Below, in pieces: positions 1,374 through 18,900 of a stretch of DNA of 64,000 nucleotides; the stretch's first letter is position 1, and each line of letters starts with the position of its first letter. This DNA comes from Gammaproteobacteria bacterium. GTDB taxonomy: Bacteria; Pseudomonadota; Gammaproteobacteria; Eutrophobiales; Eutrophobiaceae. The translations under genes were made by a program, and so were the position numbers. Under the pieces are notes generated by a model that had not been told where the DNA came from, did no database searches, and saw only the letters and a program-made list of their open reading frames with translations. The stretch covers positions 448,001 through 512,000 of the forward strand of contig CAXMWX010000005.1 of NCBI GenBank assembly GCA_963422205.2. Direction: 5' to 3'.

Positions 1374-2573
1374 CTACCACTCCCAGCCCATCATCAGGCA
1401 ATTCAACCCGCTGCCGATACCGAGAAAACCAACCCGGTCGCCGGATTTCAGGAAATTGCGCTGATCGGCAATCGCTGCGGTCATCGGCACGGACACCGTA
1501 CCCATGTTGCCGAGGTAAGGATAGGTGCTGAAATCTTTCTCGGCGGCAATGCCCAACTCCTTCAGGATGGTCTCCCTGTGCCCCTCGCCCACCTGATGGC
1601 AGATCACCTTGTCCACATGATCCCGCGCCCAGCCCATCGCTTTCAAGAAAGACGCCCAGGTGTTCACGCCCAGCCTGGCGCCGTGTTTCAGCACCGAGAC
1701 CGAGTCGGTGGACATGAACTCCGACATGGCCCTTGGCAGGGTCTTGGATGGGATGAGGCTAGCCAGCACAGGCGGAATCCTCTCGCTGGTCATGATCTCT
1801 CTTAACGCTGCCGGGATCACCTCCGGCTCCATCACCTCGTCAATCGTTGCCCGCAATTTATCCGGCGAGAGCATGAGCCGGCCCAACTCGGCGGGCGTGA
1901 AGGTGATCCCCCAGCGACACAGGCGATGATGCTCCGGGGCGGCCCGGGTTGTCTCGCCGATCAAACGGTGTGCGCCGCCATTGGCAAACGAGCCATCGGT
2001 AAGCAGCACCGCCGCTGCACCGGAGCCGCCGGTCAAGGTGGCCAGCGAGGAACTGAACAGGCGCATGGATTTTTCCTGTACCATGCGCTCGATCATGGTA
2101 TCGACGATCTCCCTGGCGGACTCGCAGGAGACCACGATGCCGGCACGGATCTGTTTCAGCTCAATGCGGTTGGCGATATCGATGATGCCGTTCAAGGTGC
2201 CAAGACAGGCATTGGAAATATCATAGATATAGGCATCAGTGCGGATGCCGAGCTTGTCCGCCACCGCACAGGCAGTGGCCGGTTCATAGTTCTCCCGGCA
2301 GACGCCGGAGTAGATCAACGCACCGATGTCCATTGCGCTGACGTTGCTCGCCTGTAACGCCTTGCGCGCTGCCGCCGCCGCCCCATCGGACAGGGCATGG
2401 CCCTTATCCCACCAGCGACGCTCGGCGATGCCGGTCAGCGCCTCCAACTGGCCCGGGGCGATATGCAGTGCATCGTACATGGGCATCAGGCGCTCTTCCA
2501 AATCGCCGGAGGTGATGACCTCAGCCGGCAACTCATAGCCGATGGACTCCATATAGACATGGCGATAGTTCAT
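1374..2573 (-). CDS. oleA: OleA, thiolase-fold acyl-CoA condensing enzyme, with an internal insertion
   Basis: YEPATA (Glu), SNACLG (Cys), CHQV (His), GNMG (Asn), C-terminal GIGSGLNCLM; ATGA overlap with the pfaBC stop. Confidence 0.9.
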   Translation of the reverse strand: MNYRHVYMESIGYELPAEVITSGDLEERLMPMYDALHIAPGQLEALTGIAERRWWDKGHALSDGAAAAARKALQASNVSAMDIGALIYSGVCRENYEPATACAVADKLGIRTDAYIYDISNACLGTLNGIIDIANRIELKQIRAGIVVSCESAREIVDTMIERMVQEKSMRLFSSSLATLTGGSGAAAVLLTDGSFANGGAHRLIGETTRAAPEHHRLCRWGITFTPAELGRLMLSPDKLRATIDEVMEPEVIPAALREIMTSERIPPVLASLIPSKTLPRAMSEFMSTDSVSVLKHGARLGVNTWASFLKAMGWARDHVDKVICHQVGEGHRETILKELGIAAEKDFSTYPYLGNMGTVSVPMTAAIADQRNFLKSGDRVGFLGIGSGLNCLMMGWEW

Positions 2574-5500
2574 GAGGATGACATTGTAAGGGTAAAATCC
2601 CGCATCTGATAGATAATTCTGCCATCAACGCTCAACAGGCCATCGGCCGTCAGCCGTTTTTGCGCCTCATCCCTGGCCGTGATCACCGCCTCAATGCTGA
2701 CCTGGCTGTCTGTGGGCAGGATTTGACCACGATAGACCCAGCTATGGGCAGCATCCCGCCCCGGTGCGGCAAAGCGGACCGACCCAGCCTGCCCGCCCCA
2801 GCGATCATAAGCCACATATTTCAATAGCTGAATGAATGACTCCAGCCCCAGCGACCCCGGCCACACCGGGTCCTGATAGAAATGCGCCTGAAAAAACCAG
2901 GCCGCCGGGTCGACATCCGCCTGCCCGCAAATAAAGCCGAGGGCCTGCGGCCCGCCGTCCGGGCTGTAGCCATCAATGCGATCGACCATACGCATCATCC
3001 GTGCCGGAAAGGGCGGCGCCGACGGGTAGTCGCATATGGTATGCCCGGCCAGCTCACTGGCAGCAGGCTGATACGGCGTACACTCTCGCAGGCCAACCTG
3101 CCGGGCCAGGGCAGCCCGGGAGAAAAAACCAAAATAGGTATCGCCCTGATACACCAGGCCAGCCGCACTGCTCACGGCAAAGTCGTAATGTTGAATGATC
3201 ATGCCGCCGGATTGTGACACCCGGGTGATCCTGATCTCGGTGGTCAGCGTGCCGACATCCGCCCGCACGGGTAAGCATTGGCGCGCCGTACCGCCCAGGT
3301 TACGAAACGACAGATCCGTCTGGCTGGTCAGCGCCGAGCCAAGGTAGGCCGCCAGCCAGCCACAGGGCTGCAAGGCCACTTCCAGCAACACGGCGAACGG
3401 CATCTCCGGCTGGCGATTCTCGATAAAATACCAGGCATCGGCAGGCACATCATACGCTGCTCTGATCACCCCGCCTGCGGCCAGTTGCCACGGCTGGCAC
3501 TGGTCGATAGAGACAATGCGATCGAGAAACTGGAACGGCGGCCCCGGCAGGCGGGCGATCACGCGCTCATCATCAAACACCCGGTAGCGCTCGCCGAAGG
3601 CCTCCGAGGGCTTGCCGACAGCAAAGGCATGGATGGAGGCATAATCAAACAAGACGGGACCCGGTGTCGCTGCCTTTTGGGTACGCCACAGGGTGTGCAA
3701 CTGCTGTTTACGCAGATTGCTCAGCTGCAACGACAGATCGGTCATCTGCACAATCGCCTGGCCATCGGCTGACATCAGCGCATCGGCGATCACATAAGGG
3801 ATGCCGGCCTCGGTATAACCGAGCGTCTTTATGCTGATGGCATACTGTACCTTGTTCGTGCTTGCCAGCACCTGACCGCGACACTTGAGTTTGCCCGCCA
3901 CACCCGGCACCGGCTCATAGACCATGCGCTCCGCCTCACCCACCCAGCCGAGGCGCAACAGATATACCCGCAGGGTATGCAGGCAGCATTCATACATCAA
4001 CGTCCCCGGCATCACCTGATCATCAATGAAGTGGCAGGTGATGAACCAGTCATCCGGGCGAATATCCGCCTCACCGATAATATGACCCATGCCGAAGCGA
4101 CCGCCAGCAGGGTTCAGTTCAAGGATGCGATGCACCAGCGTCATGCGCCCGCCGGGCAGACCGGCCGGCTGTTGCAAGTCAAGACCGGCAAATGCCGAAC
4201 CGAAACATGCCGCCAGATCGCCAGCGCGCAGGGCATCGAGTTGTGCATCGCTATAAGCTGCCGCCTGCATTGGCACCAACGCCTGCCAGCCTGTGGCGCA
4301 GCTGCCGGTTTGCACCTGCCCATCCAGGGCACTCAGCACGATGCCCTTGCCAGCCGCCAGTTGGGCCTCGGTGAAAAAACCGGCACAGCCATGCCGCATG
4401 GTGATCAGCAGTCTCCCATCCACCTCGCCGTCAAACCGGAAATGAAATAACCAGGTATCGCCCTGGCGGAAGAAGCGCTCGATCCGAATGTCATAGCGGA
4501 TCACCTGCCCGGCCTGTGGCAGCGGTGCATGAAAAGTCACTTCGGCATCCAGCAGCCGGTAGCAGGCCCGCCCCCTGGTCTGCAAATCAATGCCCAGATA
4601 AGCCGATAAAAACAGATCCGCCTGGCCGGCTTCCACGGCGATACAGGTGGGGATGCGCCCGCCGTCCAGATACCAGGCGCCCGGCTTGACATCGTGTTCG
4701 GTCACCACCCGCCCCGGCGCCATGGAAGCCGGCGCACCCTCCAGCGTGAGAATGCGATCGACCAGCATCAACGGCGGGGCGGGCAGACGCACCCGGGTTG
4801 GATGGCTGTCCACCTCGGCAAAGGCCGGGCCAAGCACCCGGGCAATCGCACCCGTTGCAAACTCCATGCACATCGCTCGATCGAACACCACATCCGCTCT
4901 TGGCGGCAACGCAACCGGCTTTGCAGGCGGTGCGGCGGGCAGCGTTGCCACCGCCACGGGCGGCTGGCCTGATGCGGATGGCACGGCATGCAACAAGGCG
5001 AGCTGCATCGTCACGGCCTGGTGCATCGTCTTGCTAATCCCCTGCGCCACTTGCAAAAAGGCCGCCTGTGCCGCCGCATGGGCAGTCTCGACCTGCTGTA
5101 ACTGCGCTACCACCTGCATGGCCGGATGCACCACGACATCGCCGCCCGCTGCGGGCAATTCACCTCGTGCCACCACGGGCGATGGCGCAGGCCGGCTGAT
5201 CCTGATGGCCGGACGCACAACGGGTATGTCGATCATGGCCGGGGACGGCTGGCAATCCGGCGACAGCGGCTCTCGATACAGATCATGCAAGTCCATCGCC
5301 ACCCGCTCGGTGTTAAGCTGTGCCAGCACCCGCAGCACCGACTCCGCCCCATGCTGCCCCTTGATGCAGGCGGCCAGGGCGAGATGCGGCCTTCCCTTCA
5401 ATATGTCGCCTATCATGCGACTGCAACTGCTGCCGGGGCCCGGCTCGATGAACAGACGCACGCCGTCCTGATAGGCGCGCTCAATAAGGCGGGGATAATC

Positions 5501-8500
5501 AAAGGGCTGCACCGCCTGCCCGATAAGGGAGTCGGCCGCTGCCTCGCTAGTCACTTCGTAGGGCCGGCCCCAGGCGGTGCTGTAGAACTGCACCCCGGCG
5601 GGCGGCGTGGTCTTGAGCAGGTGCAGTTGCCGGTATTCCTCGGCCACCGGCAAGGCCACCTCGCAATGCACCGTGGTCACGCCATGCAGCGGATGAAACT
5701 GACAGGCAAGATTCGCCACCAGCGCCTCAACCGCCGTGCGCTCGCCGCCGATGACGCACTCATTCGGTGTGTTTACGATCAGCAGATACACCCGCTGCCT
5801 GCCGCCCGGATCAATGTGCAGGCTGGCCTTGATCTGCCGGGCAGAGCGATTGACCACACCTGCCTGCCAGTCGATCGTGACCGCCTCATCGGTGATCCCC
5901 CAGGCCCGGCGCGCCGCCTCAAAAGGCCCGGCCAAATCACGCACGAACAGCGATGAGCGCTGCATGCGCCGCAACATCTGATCGCGCCCCACCCAGGTAC
6001 GGCTGGCAAACAGGCCGGTGGTCTCGCCCAGGCTGTAGCCGATGATGGCGTCCGGGCGAACGGCATGGCGGGCCAGTATGTCGCTGATCAGCGTACCCAG
6101 CCAGACCTGGCCGAAGATCACTTCCTCGCATGATGGTGCTGATCCATCCGAGGCAGACCAGAAACGCCCCCCGGCAAACTGGCTGGCAAGGTAATCGTTT
6201 TCCTGATCCAGCCGCTCCAGAACGTCCGGCCAGGCGCATGCCGCCTCCCGGCCCATGCCGTGAAAATGATTGCCCGCACCGGGAAAGACAAAGGCCAGCC
6301 GGCCCGTCGCTGCCTGTGGCCCGGCCAAAGGCTGGGGGCTGAAAAACACTTCGCCATCGGCGATGGCCGTGTTGTTTTGCACGGCTGGCAGCGCCCGCTC
6401 GATCAGCTGCCGCAGGTGCTGAGGATTGCCGGCCAGTAATGACAGGGCCAGCGGATGCTGCTGGTCATTCTCTTGCAGGCATCGCCGCGCCAGGTGTTGC
6501 ACGGATAACTGCTGGTCGGTCGCCTGTGCTGTTAATTGCTGAAGTCGTGCTGCCAGCGCACCAGGGTCAACCGCCGTCAATGACAACAGGGTCAGCGGCA
6601 ATGGCAGCGCCAATGGCTGGCTGCTCTCTGCCTGCTGTAACACCACGGCGATATGATTGCCATCCACACTGCCCGCCTGTACCAGGCGGTGACGTGGTCC
6701 GGACTTCCGATCCCGTAACCAGGGCTGTGGCTGGCCGCCGTCCCGCCCCGGCAGCAACCGATGATGCAGAGACAGGCTGTCCCGCACGACGTTGAGCAGT
6801 CCGGCCGCCGCGCCGTACTCGGCGTAATCCATCGCCGCCCCCTGCCCGCCTTCTCGCTCATCCGCATCCAGCCCGGCCTCCCGCAAGCCCTGGCCGATGG
6901 CGGCCCCGGCCTGCATCGCATTGCCCAGGCCGCTGACCAGGGCGTAGATGCGATCACCGGCCTTGAGCGCATCTTTGTGCCGCTTGAGTATTAAAGACAC
7001 GGCCGCATCGCCAGCGTGATTAATAGTATGGTCACGGGCGGCGGCCAGGCGCACATCGCTGGCAAAATCCACCGCACCCACAATGGCGGTGTTGATCTCC
7101 TGTCGCTGCAAGGCACGTGTGCCCAGCATCAGCGCGCGCAGGCCGGACGCCTGTTCATTCGATACGGTAAAACTCGGCCCGCCCAGGCGATAGGCACGGG
7201 CGATGCGGCTGGCGATGATGCCTCCCAGCGCGCCCATGGTGCGGTTGGCGGTCAGGGGCGGACTGATGGCCTGGCGTATTTCACCCGTCCAGGCGGCCAG
7301 CGCATCATCATCCCGTCGCAAACCCAGCCGCACCGCCCAGCGCCGGGCGCATTCCAACAGGCCCCAGCGCAGATGATAATTGGTCGTGTTCAAATCCAGG
7401 GCGATACCGATGTACGCCCCCGCCTCTCGCAACGCCTCAGCCTCATCCTGTTCCATGCCGGCATCGGCCAGGGCATCGGCGGCCACCTGCAGCATCAACA
7501 CCTGCTGCGGCAACATGGCTTTTAGCTCGGTCGGCGGAATGCGAAACCGCCCGGCGGGAATACCGATGGCAGCTATCGTTCGCTGTGGCTGACTCTGGCG
7601 GCCAAACAACTGCTCGGCAAATGCCGCCAGCCGTTCACACTCGCCGTGCCAGGTGGCCATCCCGATAATGGCGATGTCCTCTGTTGCCTGCTCTGTCATT
7701 CGAGGCGACCAGGCCACGGCGATGGCGTGATCCGGCGGCGGCTCACCGCACCACTCCTCCAGCAGGACGTGGGCATTGATACCGCCAAAACCAAACGCAC
7801 TGACGGCCGCCCGTCTTGGGCTTGCTGCTGTGCGCCGTGGCCAGTCAGCGGCCAACTGCAAGACCCTGAACGGGCTGGCATCCAGCGCAACGGCAGCGGA
7901 CTCAAAATTGGCCGTTGGGGGCAACACCCGGTGCTGCATGGCGAGCAAGACCTTGATCACCCCGGCCGCACCGGCGGCTGTCAACAGGTGACCGATATTG
8001 CTTTTGACCGAGCCAATCACGCACGCACGCTGTCCCCCACCCTCACCATGCAGGCGCCGCAGGCTGTCAAACTCCACGGCATCGCCAATGGGCGTGCCAG
8101 TGCCGTGGCATTCGATCAGATCAACATCGCCAGGATGCCAGTCGGCCTGTTGATAGGCGGCGTACATGGCACGTAGCTGGCCTTCTGAATCCGGCGCCAT
8201 GAGATTACCGCCAATATCATTCGACAAGCCCATACCGGCGATGGTGGCATAAATACGATCACCCTGTGCCAGCGCATCAGGCAGGCGTTTGAGCAGCAAC
8301 ATGCCACAGCCCTCGCCCACCACCAAGCCATCCGCCCGCCGATCAAACGGCGCACACCGGCCGCTGGCAGAGATGGCATGCAGGGCCGAGAAGCCCATCT
8401 GCGTATACAGGGAATCCGGCCGTGACAAGCCGCCGCAAAGCATGGCGTCCGCTCGCCCGGCCTGTAGCTCATCCACAGCATACTTCAGCGCATACAGCGA

Positions 8501-9070
8501 TGAAGCACAGGCCGCATCCAGCGTATAACTGCCGCCGGTAAGACCCAGCGCCTGTGCCAGCAGGCCGGCAGGCAGGCCAGCAACATAGGCATTGTACGGA
8601 TGGGTTGCCGCCGGCCTTGCTGCCGTGCCGAATAACTGTTGCTCAAACTGGGGTAGAACATGCTCATCGGCAAGGCGTGAGGCGGCATCGGTGGGCAGGA
8701 CGATATTGCCGATGATGATGCCGGTTCGGTGCTTGTCGATGCGCTCGGTGCGGCCATCCTGCCAGGCTTGACGCCCGGCATGGAGTAGCAGATGCACCAT
8801 GGGATCGAGTGAGTCGATGAATGCTGAGTCCAGCGCCAAACCGGTATGGCCAAGGGTGAAGCCTTCCACAAAACAGGCGCGCTTTGAATAGACCTTGTCG
8901 GGCTTGGGGCCGGCGGGATCGTAGGCATCGGCCAGCGGCAGCAGCCAGCGGCCAGCGGGCGGCTCCCTGGTACAGTCCCTGGCGGCAACGATATGCTCCC
9001 AAAATTGATCAAGATCACCGGCCCCGGGAAATATCCCCCCCATGCCAACGATGGCGATGCGTTGTTTCAT
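2570..9070 (-). CDS. pfaC: PfaB/C-type iterative PUFA synthase subunit (KS-CLF-AT-FabA-like DH domains)
   Basis: KS motifs DAACASS, ECHGTGT, GHLL; second degenerate KS (chain-length factor, no catalytic Cys); AT GYSLGE; FabA-like DH motifs TCHFIDDQVMPG and AHFYQDPVWPG. Start MKQRIAIVG at 9070. Confidence 0.88.
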   Translation of the reverse strand: MKQRIAIVGMGGIFPGAGDLDQFWEHIVAARDCTREPPAGRWLLPLADAYDPAGPKPDKVYSKRACFVEGFTLGHTGLALDSAFIDSLDPMVHLLLHAGRQAWQDGRTERIDKHRTGIIIGNIVLPTDAASRLADEHVLPQFEQQLFGTAARPAATHPYNAYVAGLPAGLLAQALGLTGGSYTLDAACASSLYALKYAVDELQAGRADAMLCGGLSRPDSLYTQMGFSALHAISASGRCAPFDRRADGLVVGEGCGMLLLKRLPDALAQGDRIYATIAGMGLSNDIGGNLMAPDSEGQLRAMYAAYQQADWHPGDVDLIECHGTGTPIGDAVEFDSLRRLHGEGGGQRACVIGSVKSNIGHLLTAAGAAGVIKVLLAMQHRVLPPTANFESAAVALDASPFRVLQLAADWPRRTAASPRRAAVSAFGFGGINAHVLLEEWCGEPPPDHAIAVAWSPRMTEQATEDIAIIGMATWHGECERLAAFAEQLFGRQSQPQRTIAAIGIPAGRFRIPPTELKAMLPQQVLMLQVAADALADAGMEQDEAEALREAGAYIGIALDLNTTNYHLRWGLLECARRWAVRLGLRRDDDALAAWTGEIRQAISPPLTANRTMGALGGIIASRIARAYRLGGPSFTVSNEQASGLRALMLGTRALQRQEINTAIVGAVDFASDVRLAAARDHTINHAGDAAVSLILKRHKDALKAGDRIYALVSGLGNAMQAGAAIGQGLREAGLDADEREGGQGAAMDYAEYGAAAGLLNVVRDSLSLHHRLLPGRDGGQPQPWLRDRKSGPRHRLVQAGSVDGNHIAVVLQQAESSQPLALPLPLTLLSLTAVDPGALAARLQQLTAQATDQQLSVQHLARRCLQENDQQHPLALSLLAGNPQHLRQLIERALPAVQNNTAIADGEVFFSPQPLAGPQAATGRLAFVFPGAGNHFHGMGREAACAWPDVLERLDQENDYLASQFAGGRFWSASDGSAPSCEEVIFGQVWLGTLISDILARHAVRPDAIIGYSLGETTGLFASRTWVGRDQMLRRMQRSSLFVRDLAGPFEAARRAWGITDEAVTIDWQAGVVNRSARQIKASLHIDPGGRQRVYLLIVNTPNECVIGGERTAVEALVANLACQFHPLHGVTTVHCEVALPVAEEYRQLHLLKTTPPAGVQFYSTAWGRPYEVTSEAAADSLIGQAVQPFDYPRLIERAYQDGVRLFIEPGPGSSCSRMIGDILKGRPHLALAACIKGQHGAESVLRVLAQLNTERVAMDLHDLYREPLSPDCQPSPAMIDIPVVRPAIRISRPAPSPVVARGELPAAGGDVVVHPAMQVVAQLQQVETAHAAAQAAFLQVAQGISKTMHQAVTMQLALLHAVPSASGQPPVAVATLPAAPPAKPVALPPRADVVFDRAMCMEFATGAIARVLGPAFAEVDSHPTRVRLPAPPLMLVDRILTLEGAPASMAPGRVVTEHDVKPGAWYLDGGRIPTCIAVEAGQADLFLSAYLGIDLQTRGRACYRLLDAEVTFHAPLPQAGQVIRYDIRIERFFRQGDTWLFHFRFDGEVDGRLLITMRHGCAGFFTEAQLAAGKGIVLSALDGQVQTGSCATGWQALVPMQAAAYSDAQLDALRAGDLAACFGSAFAGLDLQQPAGLPGGRMTLVHRILELNPAGGRFGMGHIIGEADIRPDDWFITCHFIDDQVMPGTLMYECCLHTLRVYLLRLGWVGEAERMVYEPVPGVAGKLKCRGQVLASTNKVQYAISIKTLGYTEAGIPYVIADALMSADGQAIVQMTDLSLQLSNLRKQQLHTLWRTQKAATPGPVLFDYASIHAFAVGKPSEAFGERYRVFDDERVIARLPGPPFQFLDRIVSIDQCQPWQLAAGGVIRAAYDVPADAWYFIENRQPEMPFAVLLEVALQPCGWLAAYLGSALTSQTDLSFRNLGGTARQCLPVRADVGTLTTEIRITRVSQSGGMIIQHYDFAVSSAAGLVYQGDTYFGFFSRAALARQVGLRECTPYQPAASELAGHTICDYPSAPPFPARMMRMVDRIDGYSPDGGPQALGFICGQADVDPAAWFFQAHFYQDPVWPGSLGLESFIQLLKYVAYDRWGGQAGSVRFAAPGRDAAHSWVYRGQILPTDSQVSIEAVITARDEAQKRLTADGLLSVDGRIIYQMRDFTLTMSSS

Positions 9071-9176
9071 GCAGATGGTTGAGATGAGTGCAAGGCGGCA
9101 GGATAACACAGGCAAAGCGCCGTGTGGTATCTTATTGGTGAGACAGCACCCCATGCTGCATAACGGAGATAAACGG

Positions 9177-11975
9177 ATGACCCAGAGACTACTAGCCGAT
9201 TTTTGTCATCAGTATTCCCTGTCAAAGACCTTGCGTTTTGCGCTAAGACCTGTTGGGGAAACTGAACAGTTCATAGCAAACAAGGGTTTGCTTGAAGAAG
9301 ACGAGGAACGGGTTGAAAAGTATAAACAGGCCAAAAAGATCATAGATGAATATCACAAAGACTTTATCAACCGCAGTCTTGAGGGTTTTTGTTTTGAAGA
9401 AAAGGATTTGGAGAATTTCCATGAAGCCTACTACACGTTCAAGAACAGTGACAATAAAGACAGTCAAGACTTCGAGGGTAAACAGACTAAATTGCGTGAA
9501 GCCATAGGGAAACAATTCAATACACAAAGATTATTCACAAAACATTTTATTAAAGAGACATTGCCGGAATGGCTGAAAGAGAGAACCCTGCAAATTGAAG
9601 GCGTTGACGACCCCGGAGCCATTATCAAAGATTTTGAAGACTGGACGACATATTTTCGTGGTTTTAATGAAAACCGCAAAAATATTTACAAAGAAGAAAA
9701 AGGGCCCAGGAGCACTTCCATCGGCTATCGTCTCATCCATGAGAATTTACCCCGGTTCATTGACAATATAAAACGCTACAAAGACGCAAGAGAGCTGAAT
9801 GTGGATTTTTCTGACGTGGAAAGGATTTTTGACGTTGACCTGGATCAGGTCTTTTCACTTGAATATTACAACCATTGTCTGACTCAGAGGGGAATTGATA
9901 CTTACAATCAAATTTTAGGTGGGCAGAGCGAACAGGGGAATGTGAAAAAACAAGGCGTAAACGAGAAAATCAACCTTCATGCTCAGCAATTAAAAAGCGA
10001 AGGCTCAAATGCCACTGATGAGCGTAAAAAAGAACTCGAAGAAAAAGCTAAAAAAGTCCGCTCCTGCAAACTGGAAAAACTCCACAAACAAATTCTCAGC
10101 GACAGAAGTGAACTCTCTTTTCGTTTGGAGGAGATAGATAGTGATGCCAGCTTGTGTGCAGCCATATTATTAAAATTCAAAATTGACGATGCTGAAAATC
10201 TCATAGGCAAAGACAAAGATATTAACATCACAGAAAATCTTGAAAAGTCCTTAACGCCGCTTAAAGATGCCGACCCTGAAAAGATATATGTCAATAATCG
10301 CTCTATAGCAGCCATTTCACAAAATCTTTTTAAGAACTGGAATACGATTAATGATTGTCTGGAATATTATGCCGAAAAGAAACTCTATCCCGTTCCCGAA
10401 AGGGAAAAAGAAACCAAGAAACTCTTAGACCAAAGAGAACAATGGTGCAAACAGTCCTACTTCTCCTTTACGGATATTCATAAGGCGTTGGAGACTTACT
10501 TTGAGCAATATACAGGGGACGAATTGAAAGATGAGCAAAAATCAGAGGGGGTAAATGACGGCTTGAACATAAAAGAGCAAAAGGAAATCGCTGAGAGCAG
10601 GCCGCTTTTTGTCTATTTTGAAAGACTGGCTATAAGAAAAAAGAACCAGGAAAACAATACATTTGAATCAAAACATCTGCTTGAAGAAATCCAGAGAACA
10701 TTTAAGGAGGCGCTTCCGGTATTAGAAGAATACGAATGTATAGAGGAAGAAAAGCTGAAGAATGAAAAAGACAAAGTGCAAAAAATCAAACACTATCTTG
10801 ATGCCTTGATGGATCTGCAATATTTCCTGAAGTCCCTATCCGTCCAACTCAGCAAAAAAGAGGAAGAAAAAGCAGTTGAACTATATGAAAAAGACACTGG
10901 ATTTTATGAAGGTTTTGACGCTTTATTTGAAGTCGTTGAACAAATCGTTCCTCTCTACAACAAGACCCGAAACTACCTGACGAAAAAACCCTACAGCGTA
11001 GAGAAATACAAGCTGAATTTTGAAAACCAGGAACTTGCGGATGGCTGGGATAAAAACAAAGAAAAGGCTAATACCTGTGTGCTGTTGATGAAAGACGGGC
11101 AGTATTTTCTTGGCATAATGGACAGAGAACACAAGAAGATATTTGAAGGGGGCTTGCCCGATGAAGGCCAATGCTATAGAAAAATTGTTTACAAACAAAT
11201 CGCAAATGCCGGAAAAGATATTCAAAACCTGATCCGTATCAACGGCAAGTTTGAAAGAAAGACCAAAAAATTAGATGAACTCAAAAAACAGTATATTCCT
11301 GATATTTATGAAATAAGAAAGCGCGAATCACATAAAACTACAAATAAAAATTTTAACAAGGCTGACCTGATAAAATTTATTGATTACTACAAAGAAGCAG
11401 CAATAGCCTATTGGGACTGGTATGATTTTTCTTTTAAGAAGAGCAATAAATACGACAGCTTTAAAGAGTTTACCGACCATGTAAATAGCCAGGGATACAA
11501 GATTAAATTTCAGGATGTTTCAGAAACCCATATTGATGATTGCGTAAAAAAGGGGAAACTCTACCTTTTCCAGATTTACAGCAAAGATTTTTCGCCCAAA
11601 ACAAGAGGCAAGCCCAACTTGCAGACACTTTACTGGAAAGCCTTGTTTGATGATAAAAACCTGCGCGATGTTGTTTACAAACTCAACGGTAAGGCGGAAC
11701 TCTTTTACCGGAACCCATCTATTGAATATTCACCGTCAATCTGGGAAAAAGGACACCACGCTGGAAAAATAAGGCAGACATACCCCATTATCAAAGATCA
11801 CCGCTATGCCAAGGCTACATACTTATTTCATGTGTCAATCCAGTGTAACTTCAAAGCGGGCACAAAAAACTCCACCGATTTCAACCGCGAAGTCAGAGAC
11901 TCTCTCAAAGACAATTCGGAGGTGAATATCATAGGATTGATCGCGGCGAGAGACATTTGGCTTATTACACGGTAA
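9177..11975 (+). CDS. cas12a: Cas12a (Cpf1) N-terminal part (WED/REC/PI), truncated by a frameshift at RuvC-I
   Basis: FCHQYSLSKTLRFAL, FTTYF-like WTTYFRGFNENRKNIY, YRLIHENLPRF, LYNKTRNYLTKKPYS, LADGWDKNKE, GKLYLFQIYSKDFS, KLNGKAELFYR; GGAG RBS at 9165-9168; AT-rich relative to its flanks. Confidence 0.95.
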   Translation: MTQRLLADFCHQYSLSKTLRFALRPVGETEQFIANKGLLEEDEERVEKYKQAKKIIDEYHKDFINRSLEGFCFEEKDLENFHEAYYTFKNSDNKDSQDFEGKQTKLREAIGKQFNTQRLFTKHFIKETLPEWLKERTLQIEGVDDPGAIIKDFEDWTTYFRGFNENRKNIYKEEKGPRSTSIGYRLIHENLPRFIDNIKRYKDARELNVDFSDVERIFDVDLDQVFSLEYYNHCLTQRGIDTYNQILGGQSEQGNVKKQGVNEKINLHAQQLKSEGSNATDERKKELEEKAKKVRSCKLEKLHKQILSDRSELSFRLEEIDSDASLCAAILLKFKIDDAENLIGKDKDINITENLEKSLTPLKDADPEKIYVNNRSIAAISQNLFKNWNTINDCLEYYAEKKLYPVPEREKETKKLLDQREQWCKQSYFSFTDIHKALETYFEQYTGDELKDEQKSEGVNDGLNIKEQKEIAESRPLFVYFERLAIRKKNQENNTFESKHLLEEIQRTFKEALPVLEEYECIEEEKLKNEKDKVQKIKHYLDALMDLQYFLKSLSVQLSKKEEEKAVELYEKDTGFYEGFDALFEVVEQIVPLYNKTRNYLTKKPYSVEKYKLNFENQELADGWDKNKEKANTCVLLMKDGQYFLGIMDREHKKIFEGGLPDEGQCYRKIVYKQIANAGKDIQNLIRINGKFERKTKKLDELKKQYIPDIYEIRKRESHKTTNKNFNKADLIKFIDYYKEAAIAYWDWYDFSFKKSNKYDSFKEFTDHVNSQGYKIKFQDVSETHIDDCVKKGKLYLFQIYSKDFSPKTRGKPNLQTLYWKALFDDKNLRDVVYKLNGKAELFYRNPSIEYSPSIWEKGHHAGKIRQTYPIIKDHRYAKATYLFHVSIQCNFKAGTKNSTDFNREVRDSLKDNSEVNIIGLIAARDIWLITR

Positions 11976-13117
11976 TAAACCAGAGAGGAGAAATTCTTAA
12001 AGACGCAAATGGAGAGCATTTGCAGGGGAGTTTAAACAAACCCCTCGGCGAAAAAGACTACCAGGAGCTTTTACACAAGCGGGAAAAAGACAGGGACAAA
12101 AACAGAAAATCCTGGGGAACAGTTGAAAAAATCAAAGACTTGAAAGAAGGGTATTTATCTCAAGTAGTGCATAAAATTGCAAAACTCATGGTGGAACACA
12201 ATGCCATAGTGGTTTTTGAAGATTTGAATTTCGGCTTTAAGAAAGGTCGTTTCAAGGTGGAAAAACAGGTCTATCAAAAGCTGGAAAAGATGCTCATTGA
12301 CAAACTCAATTACCTTGTATTCAAGGATAAAAATCCCAATGAGGCAGGCGGCCTTCTAAATGCCTTGCAACTCACCGCTCCGTTTGTAAGTTTCCAGGGG
12401 CTGGGCAAGCAAACGGGGTTTATTTTTTATGTGCCCGCATATCATACCTCTAAGGTTTGCCCCGCAACCGGGTTTGTCAACCTGCTGTATCCGCGATATG
12501 AGACCATTAAAAAAGCACAGGAGTTCTGCAAAAAATTCAACAAAATCTGTTTTAACAAAGAACAAAACTGCTTTGAGTTTCACTTTCACTATGAAAAGTT
12601 CACAAATAAAGCCGAAGGGGGCAGGCAGGATTGGGTTTTGTGCAGTCACGATGTGCGGCTGGAAAATTTCAAAAATGGAAAAAGTCAATGGCAAACTCGT
12701 GAGATAAACCTGAATGAGAAGATGGAAAAATTATTCAAGGATTATTTGATTGATTTTGATGACGGGCAATGTTTGATTGAGAAAATCGCTCAACAGGATA
12801 AAAGTGAATTTTTCAAATCATTGCTCCGCCTGCTCAAACTCACCCTGCAAATGCGTAACAACAGAATAGGAAAAGATGAAGACTGGCTTATTTCACCGGT
12901 GAAAGACAGCGAGGGTAACTTTTTTGACTCACGCAAAGCGGATACTTCCATGCCACAAAACGCGGATGCCAACGGTGCCTACCATATTGCGCTTAAAGGT
13001 TTGCTGATGCTTGAGCAACTCAGAAATAGTGAAAATGAAAATTTCAAACCGGATTTGTCCAATAAGGCATGGTATGAATTTCTGGCAGAGCGGCATGGAA
13101 ACAAAAGCAGCAATTAG
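11957..13117 (+). CDS. cas12a: Cas12a C-terminal part (bridge helix, RuvC-II, Nuc, RuvC-III)
   Basis: IKDLKEGYLSQVVHKI, VVFEDLNFGFKKGRFKVEKQVYQK, TLQMRN, PQNADANGAYHIALKG. Its frame extends upstream as DRGERHL, i.e. it continues the N-terminal part after a 1-nt deletion near 11936. Confidence 0.95.
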   Translation: MAYYTVINQRGEILKDANGEHLQGSLNKPLGEKDYQELLHKREKDRDKNRKSWGTVEKIKDLKEGYLSQVVHKIAKLMVEHNAIVVFEDLNFGFKKGRFKVEKQVYQKLEKMLIDKLNYLVFKDKNPNEAGGLLNALQLTAPFVSFQGLGKQTGFIFYVPAYHTSKVCPATGFVNLLYPRYETIKKAQEFCKKFNKICFNKEQNCFEFHFHYEKFTNKAEGGRQDWVLCSHDVRLENFKNGKSQWQTREINLNEKMEKLFKDYLIDFDDGQCLIEKIAQQDKSEFFKSLLRLLKLTLQMRNNRIGKDEDWLISPVKDSEGNFFDSRKADTSMPQNADANGAYHIALKGLLMLEQLRNSENENFKPDLSNKAWYEFLAERHGNKSSN

Positions 13118-13125
13118 AACAAAAT

Positions 13126-13683
13126 ATGGAAACCTGTCTGCCCATCTCCTATCTGAACGACTTTGTTTTCTGCCCCCGCTCTATTTATTTCCATCAACTC
13201 TATGGTCGTACCGAGCAGAGGCTGTATCAGACCACCGCCCAGACCGCTGGCAAGGCGGCGCACAAGACGATTGACGAGAGGCGTTATACCACGGCGAAAA
13301 ACGTGTTGCAGGGACTTGATGTTTACAGCGAAAAATACGCTATCGGCGGCAAGATAGATGTATATGACAAATCGAAGGCTTTGCTGACGGAGCGCAAAAA
13401 GAAAATCAAAACGATTTACGATGGCTACATATACCAGCTTTTTGCACAGTATCACTGCCTGACCGAGATGGGCTATAAGGTTGCGCGATTGCAGTTATAC
13501 AGCATGGCGGATAACCGGGTTTATCCTGTTAAAACGCCATTGGAAGACCCGGAGATGCAGCGGCAGTTTGAGCAACTTGTCGCGGCAATCAGGCAGTATG
13601 ATCTCCAGGCCCCGTTTGAACCTGATGAGAAAAAATGCAGGCAGTGTATCTATTGCAATCTTTGTGATGTTGCAAAATGTTGA
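13126..13683 (+). CDS. cas4: Type V CRISPR-associated Cas4
   Basis: ISYLNDFVFCPRSIYFH, GKIDVYD...ERK nuclease motif, C-terminal CxxCxYxxxC Fe-S cysteines; follows cas12a. Confidence 0.95.
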   Translation: METCLPISYLNDFVFCPRSIYFHQLYGRTEQRLYQTTAQTAGKAAHKTIDERRYTTAKNVLQGLDVYSEKYAIGGKIDVYDKSKALLTERKKKIKTIYDGYIYQLFAQYHCLTEMGYKVARLQLYSMADNRVYPVKTPLEDPEMQRQFEQLVAAIRQYDLQAPFEPDEKKCRQCIYCNLCDVAKC

Positions 13684-14639
13684 GCGCACCTGACTTTAAA
13701 CAAAAAAAGATTATCTTCGCATTGCTGAGCCATGGAGAAAAACTCAGCTTTAAAAATGATAATGTTATCATCACGGATGATGATGGCATCAGGCATCAGT
13801 CCAGTTGTTATCGCTTGTTTGCCCTGTTTGTTGTTGGCCATATCACCATCACATCAGGCTTGCTGCAACGGGCCAAAAAATTTGGCTTCAGTATTGTCTT
13901 AATGACCCATGGCCTGATCCCCCATGGAAGCTGGCTGGCTAAAGCGGAGGGTAATGTCCTGTTAAGGAAAAGACAGTACAACTATCAGGGTCTGGAGATA
14001 GCCAGGCATCTGATAAACGACAAGATCGAGCAACAGGTACAGAACCTGAAAAAGCGCAGGAAGAAGCCGGAGAAATTAAAACAGGCAATAACGGCTTTGC
14101 AAGCCTATCAATATCGACTGGCTAATGATTATGCCGACTTGCAGAACATCCTGGGCATTGAGGGGATCGCCTCCCGTGTGTATTTTCAGGCCATGTTCGC
14201 CGATATGGCGTGGGCTGGCAGACAGCCGAGGGCGAAGCAGGATATAACCAACCTGCTGCTGGACATTGGCTATATGCAGTTATTTCATATCATTGATGCC
14301 CTGCTGAATCTGTATGGTTTTGATACCTATCAGGGCGTTTATCATCAGGCGTTCTATCAGCGTAAATCGCTGGTGTGCGATCTGGTGGAGCCATTCAGGC
14401 CCATCGTTGATTTGGGGATCAGAAATGCATATCAGCGCGGGCAGATCCACCAAGCTGATTTCAGCTATGTGAACGGTCAATACCGGCTATTCGGCAAGGC
14501 CAGTCAGCCTTATGTGAGGCTCCTGCTGCAATCTGTTCTGGCGCACAAGCAGGCGATATTCCTTTATGTGCAAGGTTACTACAGGGCATTTATGCGGGAT
14601 AAACCCATTGATCAATACCCTGTATTTAAGAGAGATTGA
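13677..14639 (+). CDS. cas1: Type V CRISPR-associated Cas1
   Basis: EGIASRVYF, NLLLDIGY, GVYHQAFYQRKSLVCDLVEPFRP; lies between cas4 and cas2. Confidence 0.95.
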   Translation: MLSAPDFKQKKIIFALLSHGEKLSFKNDNVIITDDDGIRHQSSCYRLFALFVVGHITITSGLLQRAKKFGFSIVLMTHGLIPHGSWLAKAEGNVLLRKRQYNYQGLEIARHLINDKIEQQVQNLKKRRKKPEKLKQAITALQAYQYRLANDYADLQNILGIEGIASRVYFQAMFADMAWAGRQPRAKQDITNLLLDIGYMQLFHIIDALLNLYGFDTYQGVYHQAFYQRKSLVCDLVEPFRPIVDLGIRNAYQRGQIHQADFSYVNGQYRLFGKASQPYVRLLLQSVLAHKQAIFLYVQGYYRAFMRDKPIDQYPVFKRD

Positions 14640-14914
14640 CATTGCTTATCGTGACCTATGATATCAGTGACAATAAACTCAGAACCAGATTTGCTGCGTT
14701 TCTTTCACGCTTTGGCTATCGATTGCAGTACTCCGTGTTTGAAATCAAAAACAGCAGGCGTCTGCTGGCGCTCATAGCGGCAGAAATACAGGCAGATTAT
14801 GAGAAAAAGTTTTCACAAAGCGATAGCGTGATTATTTTTAATTTGAGCAAGCAATGTAAAATCACCCGCTACGGCTATGCAAAAGATGATGATGAAGATT
14901 TAATTATTATCTGA
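14636..14914 (+). CDS. cas2: CRISPR-associated Cas2
   Basis: LIVTYDISDNKLR...GYRLQYSVFE; 92 aa; directly upstream of the leader and array. Confidence 0.95.
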   Translation: MTLLIVTYDISDNKLRTRFAAFLSRFGYRLQYSVFEIKNSRRLLALIAAEIQADYEKKFSQSDSVIIFNLSKQCKITRYGYAKDDDEDLIII

Positions 14915-15035
14915 TAGAATTGCCTATGTTGGTCTTTATGGGCGCAAACGATGCGATATCAGCGTTTTTATGCAACCAGACTGTTAAGAATGCCTGGCAA
15001 GTTATTGAAATATCCTGCTTGCAGCAGATTTATCT
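14915..15035 (+). promoter_or_regulatory. CRISPR leader
   Basis: Non-coding 121 bp between the cas2 stop and the first repeat; the degenerate repeat is at the opposite end of the array. Confidence 0.75.
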
Positions 15036-15879
15036 GTCTAAGACCGATAACTAATTTCTACTGTTGTAGATTTGGCAGGCGCCATCTTGCCATCGGTGTC
15101 TAAGACCGATAACTAATTTCTACTGTTGTAGATCATCACGCCCTTCAATCCCTTGCTGCGTCTAAGACCGATAACTAATTTCTACTGTTGTAGATTTAGC
15201 ACCCCCCGCCCTTGCAACGGTGGTCTAAGACCGATAACTAATTTCTACTGTTGTAGATTCCTGCATGCCGATCATGAGCAGAAGTCTAAGACCGATAACT
15301 AATTTCTACTGTTGTAGATGAAGACTTCTGGGTTGTAGGTTATGTGGTCTAAGACCGATAACTAATTTCTACTGTTGTAGATATACCAAGCTGCTGCTGC
15401 AGGCAAATGTCTAAGACCGATAACTAATTTCTACTGTTGTAGATTCGGACTGACCAAGTCGACGTTAAGATGTCTAAGACCGATAACTAATTTCTACTGT
15501 TGTAGATATATCCGTCTGCCATCGGTCTTCCATGCGTCTAAGACCGATAACTAATTTCTACTGTTGTAGATACTGCGGCGCATCTTGTATCTTTTTCGGG
15601 TCTAAGACCGATAACTAATTTCTACTGTTGTAGATTTCTGAGCGGTATGGTTATACGCTGTAGTCTAAGACCGATAACTAATTTCTACTGTTGTAGATAA
15701 GGCGATCTCTGAGTCCGGATCTCTTGTCTAAGACCGATAACTAATTTCTACTGTTGTAGATGAATGCGGCCATATGAGTTTCCCTTGGGTCTAAGACCGA
15801 TAACTAATTTCTACTGTTGTAGATTTGTATAAAATGACCGGAATAACAGATGTCTAAGACCGATAACTAATTTCTACTG
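15036..15879 (+). CRISPR. Type V-A CRISPR array: 13 identical 36-nt repeats GTCTAAGACCGATAACTAATTTCTACTGTTGTAGAT, one terminal repeat truncated to 28 nt, 13 spacers of 25-28 nt
   Basis: Repeats start at 15036, 15098, 15160, 15223, 15284, 15347, 15409, 15472, 15536, 15600, 15663, 15726, 15789 and 15852; the 3' end AATTTCTACTGTTGTAGAT is the canonical Cas12a handle. Confidence 0.99.
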
Positions 15880-15930
15880 AACTTCACACAGTCAGGCGCG
15901 AACAACCCCGCCGTCCCATAACACCTCACC

Positions 15931-18900
15931 TTATGAGGACAAGCTGGCCTGCTTATCTAGCGTGTTACGGGCGAAGGCGGCATTCAGCGATTCATCGATC
16001 ACGCATTCATACTCATCCAGCCGGGCGATCACCTGCTGTCCTTCATCCAGAAATTCGATATTCGCCCTGGCAGTGCCCTCGCTGGCGCTCACGATTTCGC
16101 TGATGATGCTGACGCCCGCCCGCGGCAGGCGTTGTTGAAACTGGCGGTAGCGGCCGATGCGGGTGGGCAGGCAACCCCTGCCGGAGTGAGCAAAACTCCA
16201 CAGGATCATCAGTTGAAACGCCGCATCCAGCAGGGCCGGGTCAGCATACCAGGAGGAGCGGATGGGCTGTGCCATCCACGCTGACGGCGGCGGGGCGGAG
16301 GCAGCGCATCCCTGGATGCCCGTATCAGAGCAAGCCAGCACCTCGGTCACGGATTGCAACAGCGGGCCGTGAAATAGCTGGCCGTTGGCATAATACGCCG
16401 GCCAGCTCAGCGCATAATCGCCGGTGATTGCGCCCAGCCGGTGGTCGGTGTTTGTCGCTGGCTGACTGCCCAGGATGATGCTCGCCCTGGCGTGACGCCT
16501 ATTGCCGCTGCACAATTCAACCGGCACGTAGCGAACATCACCGATGCCTTGCTCGGTACCGGCCATGATCTGTAATGGCCGCTGCTCGGCACCTGTCAGC
16601 GTCACCCCTTTCAGGATCTGCAAGTCATCCAGGCCAGCAAACCGCAAGCCCGGATTGGCGTGTATCGCCCCGTGGATCAACCATTCGGCGATCAAGGCGG
16701 CCGGCAGCACAGCCCGCCCGTTGATGACGTGATGCGCCAGCACCGGGTAGTCCTTGACAGTCAGCAGGCGCTCAAACGCCAGCCGGAGACCCCCGGCCTC
16801 GGTGGCGGCGGGCGCTTGTTCTTGTTCTGACAGATACGCCGGAGCCGGCGCTGACCCTGAGATAACGATCTCCACCTCATCCGCCTTGCTGCCCAACTCA
16901 TCCAGCAAGTACGCCGCACCAGCGCGCAAGCCGATCACCTCAACGCCTTCGCTGGCGAATAGCTGCTTTAGCGCGGGTGTCACCATGCCGCCATCCCAGG
17001 GCCCCCAGTTCAGACTGAGCACGCGACAGCTCGGGCGCTGCCTCCGTTGTTGCTGTGCCAGCTTGTTGAGCACCTCGTTGGCGGCGGCATAATCGGCCTG
17101 TCCGCGGCGGCCAAAACGGGCGCTGGATGAGGAGAACATGACGATCGCCTTCAGCGCATCGTTTGCCGTTGCCCGCAGCAGCGCTTCGGCCCCAGCCACC
17201 TTGGTGCTGAACACGTCCTGAAACTGCTCGGCGGTTTTATCTTCAATCAGCTTGTCGGCCAGCACGCCGGCCGCGTGAATCACCCCGCTGATCGGGCCTA
17301 ACTCCGCCCGCGCCTTGTCGATGCAGGCGGCAACGGCCTCGCCGTGTCGAACGTCCACGGCCTGGTAGCTAACCGTCACGCCGCCCTCCCGCATGCGCTC
17401 AAGGTTATGGCGGATCTCCCTGGCGGCCAGGATCGCCTGACAGGTCTTCTCGGCGATTGCCGGGCTGGCATCGGTCTGCCGCAGAATAATCGCCTGCCTG
17501 ACGGCGGCGGCATCGTTTACGTCCTGTAACCAGTCCGGCTCCTTCGCCGGTAACTCGCTGCGCCCCAGCAGCAGCAGATTCACCTTGAACTGCTCCGCCA
17601 GAGCAATCGCCACTTCCGCCGTCACGCCGCGCGCCCCGCCGCTCACCACCACCACATCGCCCGGCGCAAACACAGGCAGGCGGCTGGCAGACGCAGAGAC
17701 GGCCTCGGAGCGCAAGGCAATGGCGTAGCGATGTTGCTCGGTCAGCCCCACCTCCAGCGGGCCTGCCGTGAGCAGTTCAGGCAAGAGGCGTTCACGCAGC
17801 GTCTCACCCACATCTGCCGGGAGGTCCAGCACCTTGCAATGCACATGCGGCCATTCCTTATCGGCGGTCTTGATCAGGCCACTGATCCCGGCACTGTGGG
17901 CGCTGGCCGACAGCGACCCTGTCAGGGCAAAGCGGCCACCTTGCCGGGTGATGCCGACAAGCAGTTGCAGATGCTCGGAATTGACCGCCTGCATCAAGGC
18001 GAAACCGGCCTCAATAAACGCCGCATCGGCCGCTGGTGGGGTCAGTATGATGAGGCCACCTGTGGGCATGGCCGGATGCTCATCAATCGCGATGATCGTT
18101 GCGTTGATGCCAGCGGCATGACACTGGGCTGCCAGTTGCCGCGGCAGCCGGCTGCCATCATCGGTAATGCACAGCGGCGCATCAGCGGCCAGGATCAGTG
18201 GCTGCCCGGCCTTATCATCCAGCTCAACCAGCGTGACCGGACAGCGATACAGCGATTGCCCGACAGATTGACCAGCAGATAATTCAGATGATGGCCCAGG
18301 AGATGGCTCAGGGGATGGCTCGGTAAGGGCGGCATCAACGCGTGCATCGGCAGCGGTAGCCGGCCCGGCGGCCTGCATATAATCAATGATCTGCCGCAGG
18401 GTTTGCAGGCTGGCGAGATCTTCCGGGGCAACCGCCGGTGCCGCCGGCAGGCGCTCCTGCAAGGCAGATAAGATCTCCACCCGCTTGATGGAGTCGATCC
18501 CCAGATCGGTGTCCAGATGCATGTCCACATCCAGCATCTCAGGCGGATAACCGGTCTTCTCGGCAACCACCTCCAGCATGGTGGCCTGCCAGGTCATATC
18601 GGCAACGGCGGCCTCAACAGGCGGCGGGGTGCTGGCGGGCGCGGGCGGCGGGGCGGCCAGGTCATCGTCCGTGGCAAGGTACTCAACAATGTGCGCCAGC
18701 ACCTGAAAGGTGCCAAGTTGCTCTGGCTGGATCTTGCTCATCGCCGGCAGGCGCTCCTGCAAGGCAGATAAGATCTCCACCCGCTTGATGGAATCGATGC
18801 CCAAATCGGTGTCGAGACTCATCTCCAGGCTCAACATGTCGACCGGGTAACCGGTCTTCTCGGCAACCACCTCCAGCAACAGGCGGGCAAAAAACGCCTG

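Follow-up and report, generated by a model that had tools for sequence, protein, structure and literature searches.

Canonical type V-A CRISPR (short palindromic repeats, clustered and regularly interspaced) systems, such as that of Francisella novicida Cas12a (FnCas12a; structures 5ng6, 5nfv and 8y0b), are the closest described counterparts of the locus reported here. We analyzed a stretch of 64,000 nucleotides (nt) from a gammaproteobacterium of the family Eutrophobiaceae (assembly GCA_963422205.2, contig CAXMWX010000005.1, positions 448,001 to 512,000), hereafter the window, in which positions are counted from the first letter. The window holds a type V-A locus with the same cas12a-cas4-cas1-cas2-array order as the canonical system, all Cas12a domains, a 36-nt repeat, spacers of 25–28 nt and a 5′ TTTV protospacer-adjacent motif (PAM) at three of the four protospacers that its own genome offers. 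Unlike the canonical system, its effector is written in two reading frames, and four of its 13 spacers are directed against the host. The 1-nt deletion that splits cas12a is probably a loss-of-function lesion linked to CRISPR autoimmunity, and events of this kind are known.

Self-targeting arrays that stand beside disabled cas genes have been described before. Lactobacillus acidophilus NCFM, for instance, lost its cas cassette and kept six genome-targeting spacers (Stern et al. 2010, via PMC6990116; this and the other PMC articles named below are cited from the parts of their text that were available). As in those arrays, perfect genome-matching spacers here accompany a lesion that removes interference; unlike in those arrays, what is damaged is a class 2 effector, by a frameshift of a single base, with adaptation genes and repeats left intact, and a type I-G array in the same genome gives a clean control. 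The locus also recalls engineered nuclease-dead Cas12a (dCas12a; FnCas12a D917A, LbCas12a D832A), in which the aspartate of RuvC motif I is lost. The D917A substitution is enough to abolish cleavage, and targets on the template strand are then repressed more than 200-fold (PMC6251280). At our locus, too, the domains that process RNA and read the PAM are encoded upstream of the lesion. Engineered dCas12a is an intact chain with one substitution, whereas here the chain is broken and the strand bearing the aspartate is missing from both predicted pieces.

The frameshift lies in or right beside the codon that precedes the RuvC-I catalytic aspartate. An earlier note, made from the sequence alone, had placed it at this aspartate, and the reading frames, the split of the domains and the alignment to FnCas12a D917 bear this out. 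Positions 11931–11959 read ATA GGA TTG ATC GCG GCG AGA ... CAT TTG. Frame A, which opens at ATG 9177, encodes a product of 932 amino acids (aa) with a stop at 11973–11975 and the C-terminal end ...SEVNIIGLIAARDIWLITR / ...DNSEVNIIGLIAARDIWLITR. Its open reading frame (ORF) could be extended to an upstream ATG at 9042, giving 977 aa; the start at 9177 is favored by homology and by the gene call of a large protein collection (P0002, 932 aa). Frame B, which is −1 relative to frame A, is open from 11849 for 422 codons up to a stop at 13115–13117, and its translation contains ...HRIDRGERHLAYYTV... / ...HRIDRGERHLAYYTVINQRGEIL.... The first ATG, GTG or TTG in frame B is TTG 11957, which would give 386 aa. 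Both the 932-aa protein with WED, REC and PI domains and the overlapping 386-aa ORF of the earlier note were thus recovered.

The two frames divide a single Cas12a between them. By Pfam, the first piece carries REC1, REC2 and PI, and the second carries RuvC_1 and NUC. The NCBIfam profile TIGR04330 (Cas12a/Cpf1) matches the first piece over positions 3–793 of 1288 in the better of two matched stretches, and the second piece over positions 909–1287. When aligned to FnCas12a chain 8y0b_A (1300 residues), frame A ends at residue 915, frame B begins at residues 915–917, and the Asp of frame B is residue 917; this puts the break either within codon 916 or at the base that opens the Asp codon. The best matches of both pieces in the PDB are Cas12a chains, the best sequence match among solved structures being the ancestral reconstruction ReChb (8qwd). 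Alignment of the C-terminal piece to 8qwd showed that the contexts of the RuvC-II Glu and the RuvC-III Asp are kept, in agreement with the earlier description of a 386-aa product that has both residues and lacks the RuvC-I Asp. No continuous ORF with all three RuvC motifs is present. By descent the locus is type V-A; as written, its effector gene is a pseudogene or a split gene.

Reading through the break with an X at that position yields 1313 residues, the length that had been predicted for a protein with IGIDRGERHL restored by one added base. The proposal that this base is an A held only in part: one base is needed, and it need not be A. The lost base sits in a 2-base run, with no homopolymer. 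The closest relative, P0003 (78% identity), reads NIIGIDRGERHL at the motif, i.e., IIGIDRGE, and among 46 metagenome relatives the residue before the motif Asp gives LD in 31 and ID in 15. To judge from these sequences, the lost base may be an A (GGA[A]TTGAT) or a G within the Asp codon itself (GGATTG[G]AT).

Two public sequencing runs, X1 and X2, from two samples of one study, carry the locus. Their contigs, built independently from k-mers (Logan), are identical to the window over 10900–13000, with no other letter and no gap, at a depth of 7.2 in X1 and 560 in X2. These contigs, of 24 and 39 kilobases (kb), cross the break and run from far upstream of the low-GC (guanine and cytosine) island that holds the cas genes to about 15064, in the first repeat. 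A third run, X3, contributed no contig over this part of the window, and the public runs listed for it included none of RNA. Since the same sequence is found in two independent assemblies, a slip by a single assembler or polisher is excluded; since the contigs extend from the left flank, the island is physically joined to the high-GC DNA on that side. Two adjoining ORFs of about 2170 aa each are unbroken, and thus the assembly is not ridden with indels around here. The 1-nt deletion in cas12a is probably real.

When the 13 spacers of the V-A array were compared by BLAST with the window's own genome, a check that the earlier note had called for, four had full-length matches of 100% identity outside any array (spacers 1, 4, 6 and 8; Table 1). 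This result supports that note's suggestion of an inactivation that allowed escape from self-targeting. At the perfect targets, no escape mutation was seen in either the PAM or the protospacer. As the targets carry no escape mutations, cleavage must be absent, and we infer that it has been lost in vivo. The frequency of TTTV genome-wide is 0.0119 per position, so three TTTV PAMs among four protospacers would occur by chance with a probability of about 7e-6; this enrichment indicates that the system's own PAM-selecting adaptation machinery took the spacers, either out of this genome or out of elements that now reside there. The target of spacer 6 is on the same contig as the array, which rules out mis-binning for at least that spacer. 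All four self-matching spacers are among the eight leader-proximal ones, and none is among the five oldest.

The targets differ in kind. The citrate synthase protospacer of spacer 4 lies 778 nt into a 1392-nt ORF (Pfam, E = 1.5e-134), and the only paralogue elsewhere in the genome has 28% identity. In the Mu-like prophage, the target of spacer 1 is flanked by portal and adaptor genes, a split terminase and a fragment of the major head gene. Within this prophage region (C9:162800-171300), the terminase large subunit is divided over two ORFs; one strand carries the portal and minor head genes, and the other the protease and major-head fragments. The target of spacer 8 had no match in Pfam, PHROGs or NCBIfam, and its best score in a protein atlas, 0.75, was below use. 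Elsewhere on the same contig (C9:37627-44337), with copies on C3, C5, C7, C8 and C11, are repeats of about 1.27 kb with 99.8–100% identity, along with further repeated segments. Repeats on at least six contigs look like an active insertion-sequence load; the ORFs tested matched no Pfam or NCBIfam family.

The type I-G system of the same genome served as an internal control. Its cas genes (C3:563954-575000) comprise a cas4g/cas1g fusion, cas3g with its extension, csb2 and csb1, and its array (C3:551750-563450) has 162 repeats, with a degenerate repeat at the low-coordinate end (C3:551678-563450 in all). None of its 161 spacers matched the genome outside arrays over at least 20 nt, apart from one 22-nt match with two mismatches, which we took as chance. 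The difference in self-matching between the V-A array (4/13) and the I-G array (0/161) is significant (Fisher p = 1.9e-5). Self-matching is hence a property of the V-A array, and not of the assembly or of the organism's arrays generally.

Spacers 3 and 11 of the V-A array also matched contig C3. We rejected these matches as genomic self-targets, as the C3 sites are I-G spacers 73 and 79 (Table 1); spacer 3 is a shared foreign target and no self-target. Each of the two V-A spacers begins exactly 1 nt inside the corresponding I-G spacer, and the order of the pair is inverted between the arrays. From these sequences, the two systems appear to have sampled the same PAM site of related invaders. 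The 1-nt offset fits a 5′ T-rich PAM for both systems, if the I-G PAM is TTN, as we take it to be. Spacers 3 and 11, the only non-self spacers searched against viral contigs, had no exact match there. In the I-G array, the first repeat base (+ strand) at the repeat/spacer junction is G in 120 cases, C in 31 and T in 11, and never A; this variable base could be a PAM-derived nucleotide that was carried in, and not part of the repeat.

How the deletion and the self-matching spacers may be connected can be outlined as follows. The loss of one nucleotide at the junction of WED-III and RuvC-I ends the main frame 13 codons on, and severs the RuvC and Nuc domains from the part that binds the CRISPR RNA (crRNA) and the PAM, which would leave no full-length Cas12a and no DNA cleavage. 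With four perfect self-guides, three of them with a TTTV PAM, an active Cas12a would be expected to cut the chromosome, citrate synthase included. Two orders of events are conceivable. In one, a knockout of cas12a would have been selected by the first spacer to match the genome (of the four, spacer 8, directed at a multi-copy element, is the oldest); in the other, cas12a would have broken first. In either order, intact Cas4-Cas1-Cas2 would have kept adding spacers without counter-selection, sampling the chromosome. We infer both the causal link between deletion and autoimmunity and the continuation of adaptation after the break. Perfect PAM-flanked protospacers are present in the same genome, and the frameshift before RuvC-I is a sufficient lesion.

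This outline agrees with what has been described in other systems. Chromosomal targeting is cytotoxic, and the mutation or loss of cas genes is a documented route of escape (PMC6990116). With a cleavage-dead Cas9, the share of plasmid-derived spacers fell from 68% to 4%, and the preference for foreign DNA was gone (PMC6990116). In the available part of a large survey of self-targeting, such spacers are mostly leader-proximal, and only about 13% of those of type V have a consensus PAM (PMC7708048).

Next, we considered the relatives of this Cas12a. The search covered 61 genomes (60 relatives and the window's own), a collection of 5.8 billion proteins and metagenome contigs of the Joint Genome Institute (JGI). 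Cas12a was found in three other genomes of the 61, with 55% identity at best, and a genome of the same genus lacks it. The best match in the protein collection was P0003, named above, and the best among the JGI contigs had 68% identity; no relative closer than 78% was found in the collections searched. The motif lies in one frame in P0003 and in all 46 metagenome relatives whose match begins at query residue 1, and so the break is no family trait. The 68% relative (L015:150-200) has a frameshift of its own at an A-run about 27 codons past the RuvC-I motif; this could be either an error in sequencing the homopolymer or a further break of natural origin.

To gauge decay, the read-through protein, with X at the break, was aligned with 109 full-length family members, and columns conserved in at least 90% were scored. 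It deviates at 5 of 251 conserved columns (rank 45 of 110), and P0003 at 6 of 227. Either the lesion is recent when measured against the pace of protein evolution, or selection still acts on the pieces. The protein collection has many broken cas12a fragments, with a wide range of start positions, and no conserved split form was seen among the relatives or the database fragments. Among the 120 listed of 825 C-terminal-size proteins that passed the E-value cut-off, 26 lack DRGE and have varied starts, and two (P0127 and P0180) begin at the Leu equivalent to TTG 11957. P0204 starts with MGRRERHL, with Gly at the Asp position; P0040 ends 10–20 residues past the Asp, and P0050 just before the motif. 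That these proteins and P0136 begin or end near RuvC-I may reflect contig ends, choices of the gene caller or real breaks.

The remainder of the locus is in good order. As the earlier note had stated, no second lesion is visible in the cas genes, with Cas4, Cas1 and Cas2 covering nearly their full profiles, and the 13 full repeats are the same. A 14th repeat stops after 29 nt and marks the far, old end of the array. The 3′ end of the repeat is ...AATTTCTACTGTTGTAGAT / TCTACTGTTGTAGAT, with the stem TCTAC/GTAGA read from the sequence; an Rfam scan of the whole window at gathering thresholds gave no match, either for the repeat or for a frameshift element. The assignment to type V-A is supported by the WED-REC-PI-RuvC-Nuc architecture of Cas12a, the cas4-cas1-cas2 genes, 36-nt repeats with a 3′ stem-loop and a T-rich PAM. 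A scan of 8900–16100 for promoters and terminators found seven promoter-like sites where 13.7 were expected, and none in the array leader or upstream of cas12a.

Table 1. Features of the type V-A locus in the window, with the matches of six of its spacers (C3 to C11 are contigs of the same genome)
Feature	Position	Strand	Details
cas12a N-terminal reading frame	9177..11975	+	932 aa: WED, REC1, REC2, PI, WED-III, then 12 out-of-frame residues and stop
Shine-Dalgarno-like GGAGGTGA	11918..11925	+	within S-E-V-N codons, 8 nt before the GGA codon at the break
1-nt deletion site (GGATTGAT)	11934..11941	+	base lost from Ile/Leu codon or first base of RuvC motif I Asp codon
cas12a C-terminal part, −1 frame	11939..13117	+	RuvC-I Asp codon 11939-11941, RuvC-II, RuvC-III, Nuc
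cas4 (type V), intact	13126..13683	+	TIGR04328 profile 3-176 of 178; Pfam Cas_Cas4
cas1 (type V), intact	13677..14639	+	TIGR04329 profile 1-316 of 317
cas2, intact	14636..14914	+	TIGR01573, nearly end to end; Pfam CRISPR_Cas2
Type V-A CRISPR array	15036..15880	+	13 identical 36-nt repeats, 13 spacers of 25-28 nt, truncated 14th repeat
Spacer 1 (newest)	15072..15097	+	26/26 at C9:167422-167447, PAM TTTA, head-maturation-protease fragment, degraded Mu-like prophage
Spacer 3	15196..15222	+	only other genome match is I-G spacer 73 (C3), 27/27, same sense, offset 1 nt
Spacer 4	15259..15283	+	25/25 at C5:290489-290513, PAM TTTA, citrate synthase; guide in coding-strand sense
Spacer 6	15383..15408	+	26/26 at C7:608570-608595, PAM TTTT, glyoxalase-family ORF, same contig as the array, 145 kb off
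Spacer 8	15508..15535	+	28/28 at C9:36741-36768 and 27/28 at C11:60596-60623, PAM TTTC at both, multi-copy sequence
Spacer 11	15699..15725	+	similar to I-G spacer 79: 23/26, same sense, offset 1 nt

The genome comprises 2.99 megabases in 14 contigs and has only one cas12a. Its overall GC content is 54%, that of the island is 38–44% and that of the flanks 63–65%. The type V-A island is horizontally acquired, low GC being typical of recent transfer. It spans about 9.08–15.93 kb and lies between two genes resembling polyunsaturated fatty acid/polyketide synthases, both on the minus strand (2570–9070 and 15931–22452), one with KS-AT-ACP-KR-DH domains and the other with KS and FabA-like domains. 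Apparently, the island splits what looks like a single biosynthetic operon. The true start of the gene at 2570–9070 is probably ATG 9070, not 9154. When an empty site was sought for comparison, the flanking KS gene had no orthologue in the same-genus genome, and its orthologue in another genome (G008) has only 59% identity and a different spacing.

Several points weigh against tying the deletion to autoimmunity. The absence of extra decay equally fits continued selection on the pieces, and the break falls at a domain junction, with a possible restart seven codons on that overlaps the first stop, as a viable split would look. Runs X1 and X2 share a study, and the assembly itself may have been built from one of them. 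Rare variants are lost from contigs, and an intact allele at low frequency, or an error systematic to the platform, may have gone unseen. The self-targets may be tolerated for other causes, such as anti-CRISPR genes or a silenced low-GC island. No function could be recognized for the target of spacer 8, and the ORF there may not be a gene. Finally, the leader-proximal clustering of self-matching spacers (4/8 vs 0/5) is not significant alone.

Two explanations would leave the cell with an active enzyme, and any active nuclease would cut the self-targets. A sequencing or assembly error that conceals an intact cas12a, which the earlier note had named as the simplest reading, is very improbable and is now the least likely of the three it offered. 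It is true that a single-base indel is the commonest assembly artefact, that the break site adjoins a GATC motif and that the two runs share a study, one of them perhaps being what the assembly was built from; on the other side stand the agreement of two samples under a different k-mer assembly, the depth of 560, the long contigs across the site, the uninterrupted flanking ORFs and a base lost from a 2-base run rather than a long homopolymer. Moreover, an intact Cas12a is incompatible with three perfect TTTV-flanked self-targets. Recoding that restores the enzyme, by a programmed −1 frameshift at A-GGA-T helped by GGAGGTGA or by a restart at ATT 11936, is scarcely credible. Reading the A of GGA twice would give exactly IGIDRGERHL, and GGAGGTGA, located 8 nt before this GGA codon, is a perfect 8-nt anti-Shine-Dalgarno match, the 3′ end of the 16S rRNA being canonical (CCTCC). 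By analogy with dnaX, such a distance is said to lie within the range that stimulates −1 shifts. Against this, ATA GGA TTG contains no slippery X XXY YYZ heptamer, as had been pointed out earlier, and a Gly tRNA moved from GGA to AGG would be mispaired at the first codon base. Downstream of the site, the fold does not improve on that of shuffled sequences (z = −1.42; 20 of 200 fold as well), and its hairpin starts 17 nt past the site; neither a stimulatory structure within about 5–9 nt nor conservation in two frames was found, the junction being single-frame in P0003 and the 46 relatives. The GGAGGTGA match may itself be a coding coincidence, as the SEVN peptide is also present in the intact P0003. 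ATT 11936, 10 nt past GGAGGTGA, is the only start that would keep the Asp, and ATT is a very poor start codon.

The remaining explanations accept a broken enzyme. Incidental neutral decay of a foreign, poorly expressed island, with self-spacers tolerated through an anti-CRISPR, silencing or an untranscribed array, is unlikely. The GC contrast of the island, typical of recent transfer, and the prophage remnants and repeated mobile elements in the genome speak for it, and anti-CRISPR proteins are known to let cells tolerate self-targeting (PMC7708048, PMC6990116). Long neutral decay would not be expected to spare four cas genes and 13 repeats from a second lesion, the frameshift suffices by itself for tolerance, and PAM-correct acquisition from this genome shows that the adaptation genes were expressed in this lineage. 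It is distinctly unlikely that the pieces form a functional split, DNase-dead Cas12a, in which the N-terminal piece, with or without the C-terminal one, processes pre-crRNA, reads the PAM and binds DNA, as a repressor of the CRISPR interference (CRISPRi) type or in other RNA-guided binding. The N-terminal piece retains WED, REC1, REC2 and PI. Of the FnCas12a RNA-processing residues, which we take to be H843, K852 and K869, the latter two align with Lys, and H843 falls in an alignment gap by a conserved GHH, which counts against this reading. The C-terminal frame is open throughout its 422 codons without further lesion, the conserved columns show no excess of substitutions, and candidate restarts lie at TTG 11957 (a weak GAGAG upstream, an overlap of 19 nt with the first frame's stop) and at TTG 12020 (GGAGAG 3 nt upstream, 365 aa, the protein collection's gene call P0122). 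By sequence, these candidate restart signals appear ordinary or weak. The catalytic Asp is absent from the 932-aa piece and from the pieces that would start at either TTG, and half of the central strand of the RuvC fold is lost from both. The split is conserved in no relative, and database fragments start variously. Repression by D917A is confined to template-strand targets (PMC6251280), and the guides of spacers 4 and 8 pair with the template strand, in the case of spacer 4 that of citrate synthase; the other two self-guides are complementary to the non-template strand, on which dCas12a gives no repression (PMC6251280). The self-targets lie at arbitrary positions in ORFs (778 of 1392 nt; 160 of 519 nt), not at promoters, and tight repression of the main citrate synthase, whose only paralogue is the one with 28% identity, would more probably be costly than useful. 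The pattern of targets looks like random sampling, not evolved regulation. Up to 2020, there was no report of a natural CRISPR-Cas system that is catalytically dead and regulates genes, according to the available part of PMC6990116. A still more elaborate system of memory without killing, in which the 932-aa fragment, perhaps with a translationally coupled C-terminal piece, matures crRNAs and binds PAM-flanked DNA uncut, the self-guides (above all that of spacer 4, on the template strand of citrate synthase) act as natural CRISPRi and Cas4-Cas1-Cas2 records foreign and host DNA alike, is quite improbable.

Binding without cleavage has precedents with which the locus can be compared. Cas12k (of CRISPR-associated transposons), Cas12c and Cas12m are, we assume, naturally nuclease-poor type V effectors. 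If the pieces did bind DNA, the principle shared with them would be RNA-guided DNA binding without target cleavage. They are separate conserved families with dedicated partners, whereas the present effector is an ordinary Cas12a with a fresh lesion, and the ORFs of the island include no transposition or other partner genes. Nuclease-lacking CRISPR transposons have been described (PMC6990116). Engineered split Cas12a likewise consists of two polypeptides that cover the whole enzyme; unlike the locus here, engineered splits have dimerization domains and keep every catalytic residue. A split-Cpf1 platform was reportedly presented by Nihongaki et al. in 2019. In the parts of the literature available under 'split Cas12a', the term mostly denotes split crRNAs or split DNA activators. 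We found no natural frameshifted or split Cas12a in the available parts of the literature, and the supplementary tables of PMC7708048 may list V-A cases.

A loss of function tied to autoimmunity being the preferred reading, the locus is an unusually clean new case of a known event, and not a new kind of system. It illustrates cleanly, in nature, what CRISPR immunity can cost: a newly acquired Cas12a system has several perfect, PAM-flanked guides against its host, one of them directed at a gene of central metabolism, and survival came through one missing base in a nuclease gene, with the 161 spacers of the I-G system and their lack of self-hits as the control within the same genome. It is also the natural counterpart of the laboratory result that, with a cleavage-dead effector, spacers from the host are no longer disfavored. 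The large self-targeting survey, as far as its available part indicates, left small inactivating cas mutations unscored, and such lesions are invisible to homology-based surveys (PMC7708048); 'intact' self-tolerating systems are thus overcounted. Should the fragments still be able to bind DNA, the locus would represent a nuclease-dead Cas12a of natural origin, informative on the evolution of binding-only type V effectors. And if the locus did keep memory without killing, we would be seeing a natural dCas12a-like regulator as it emerges.

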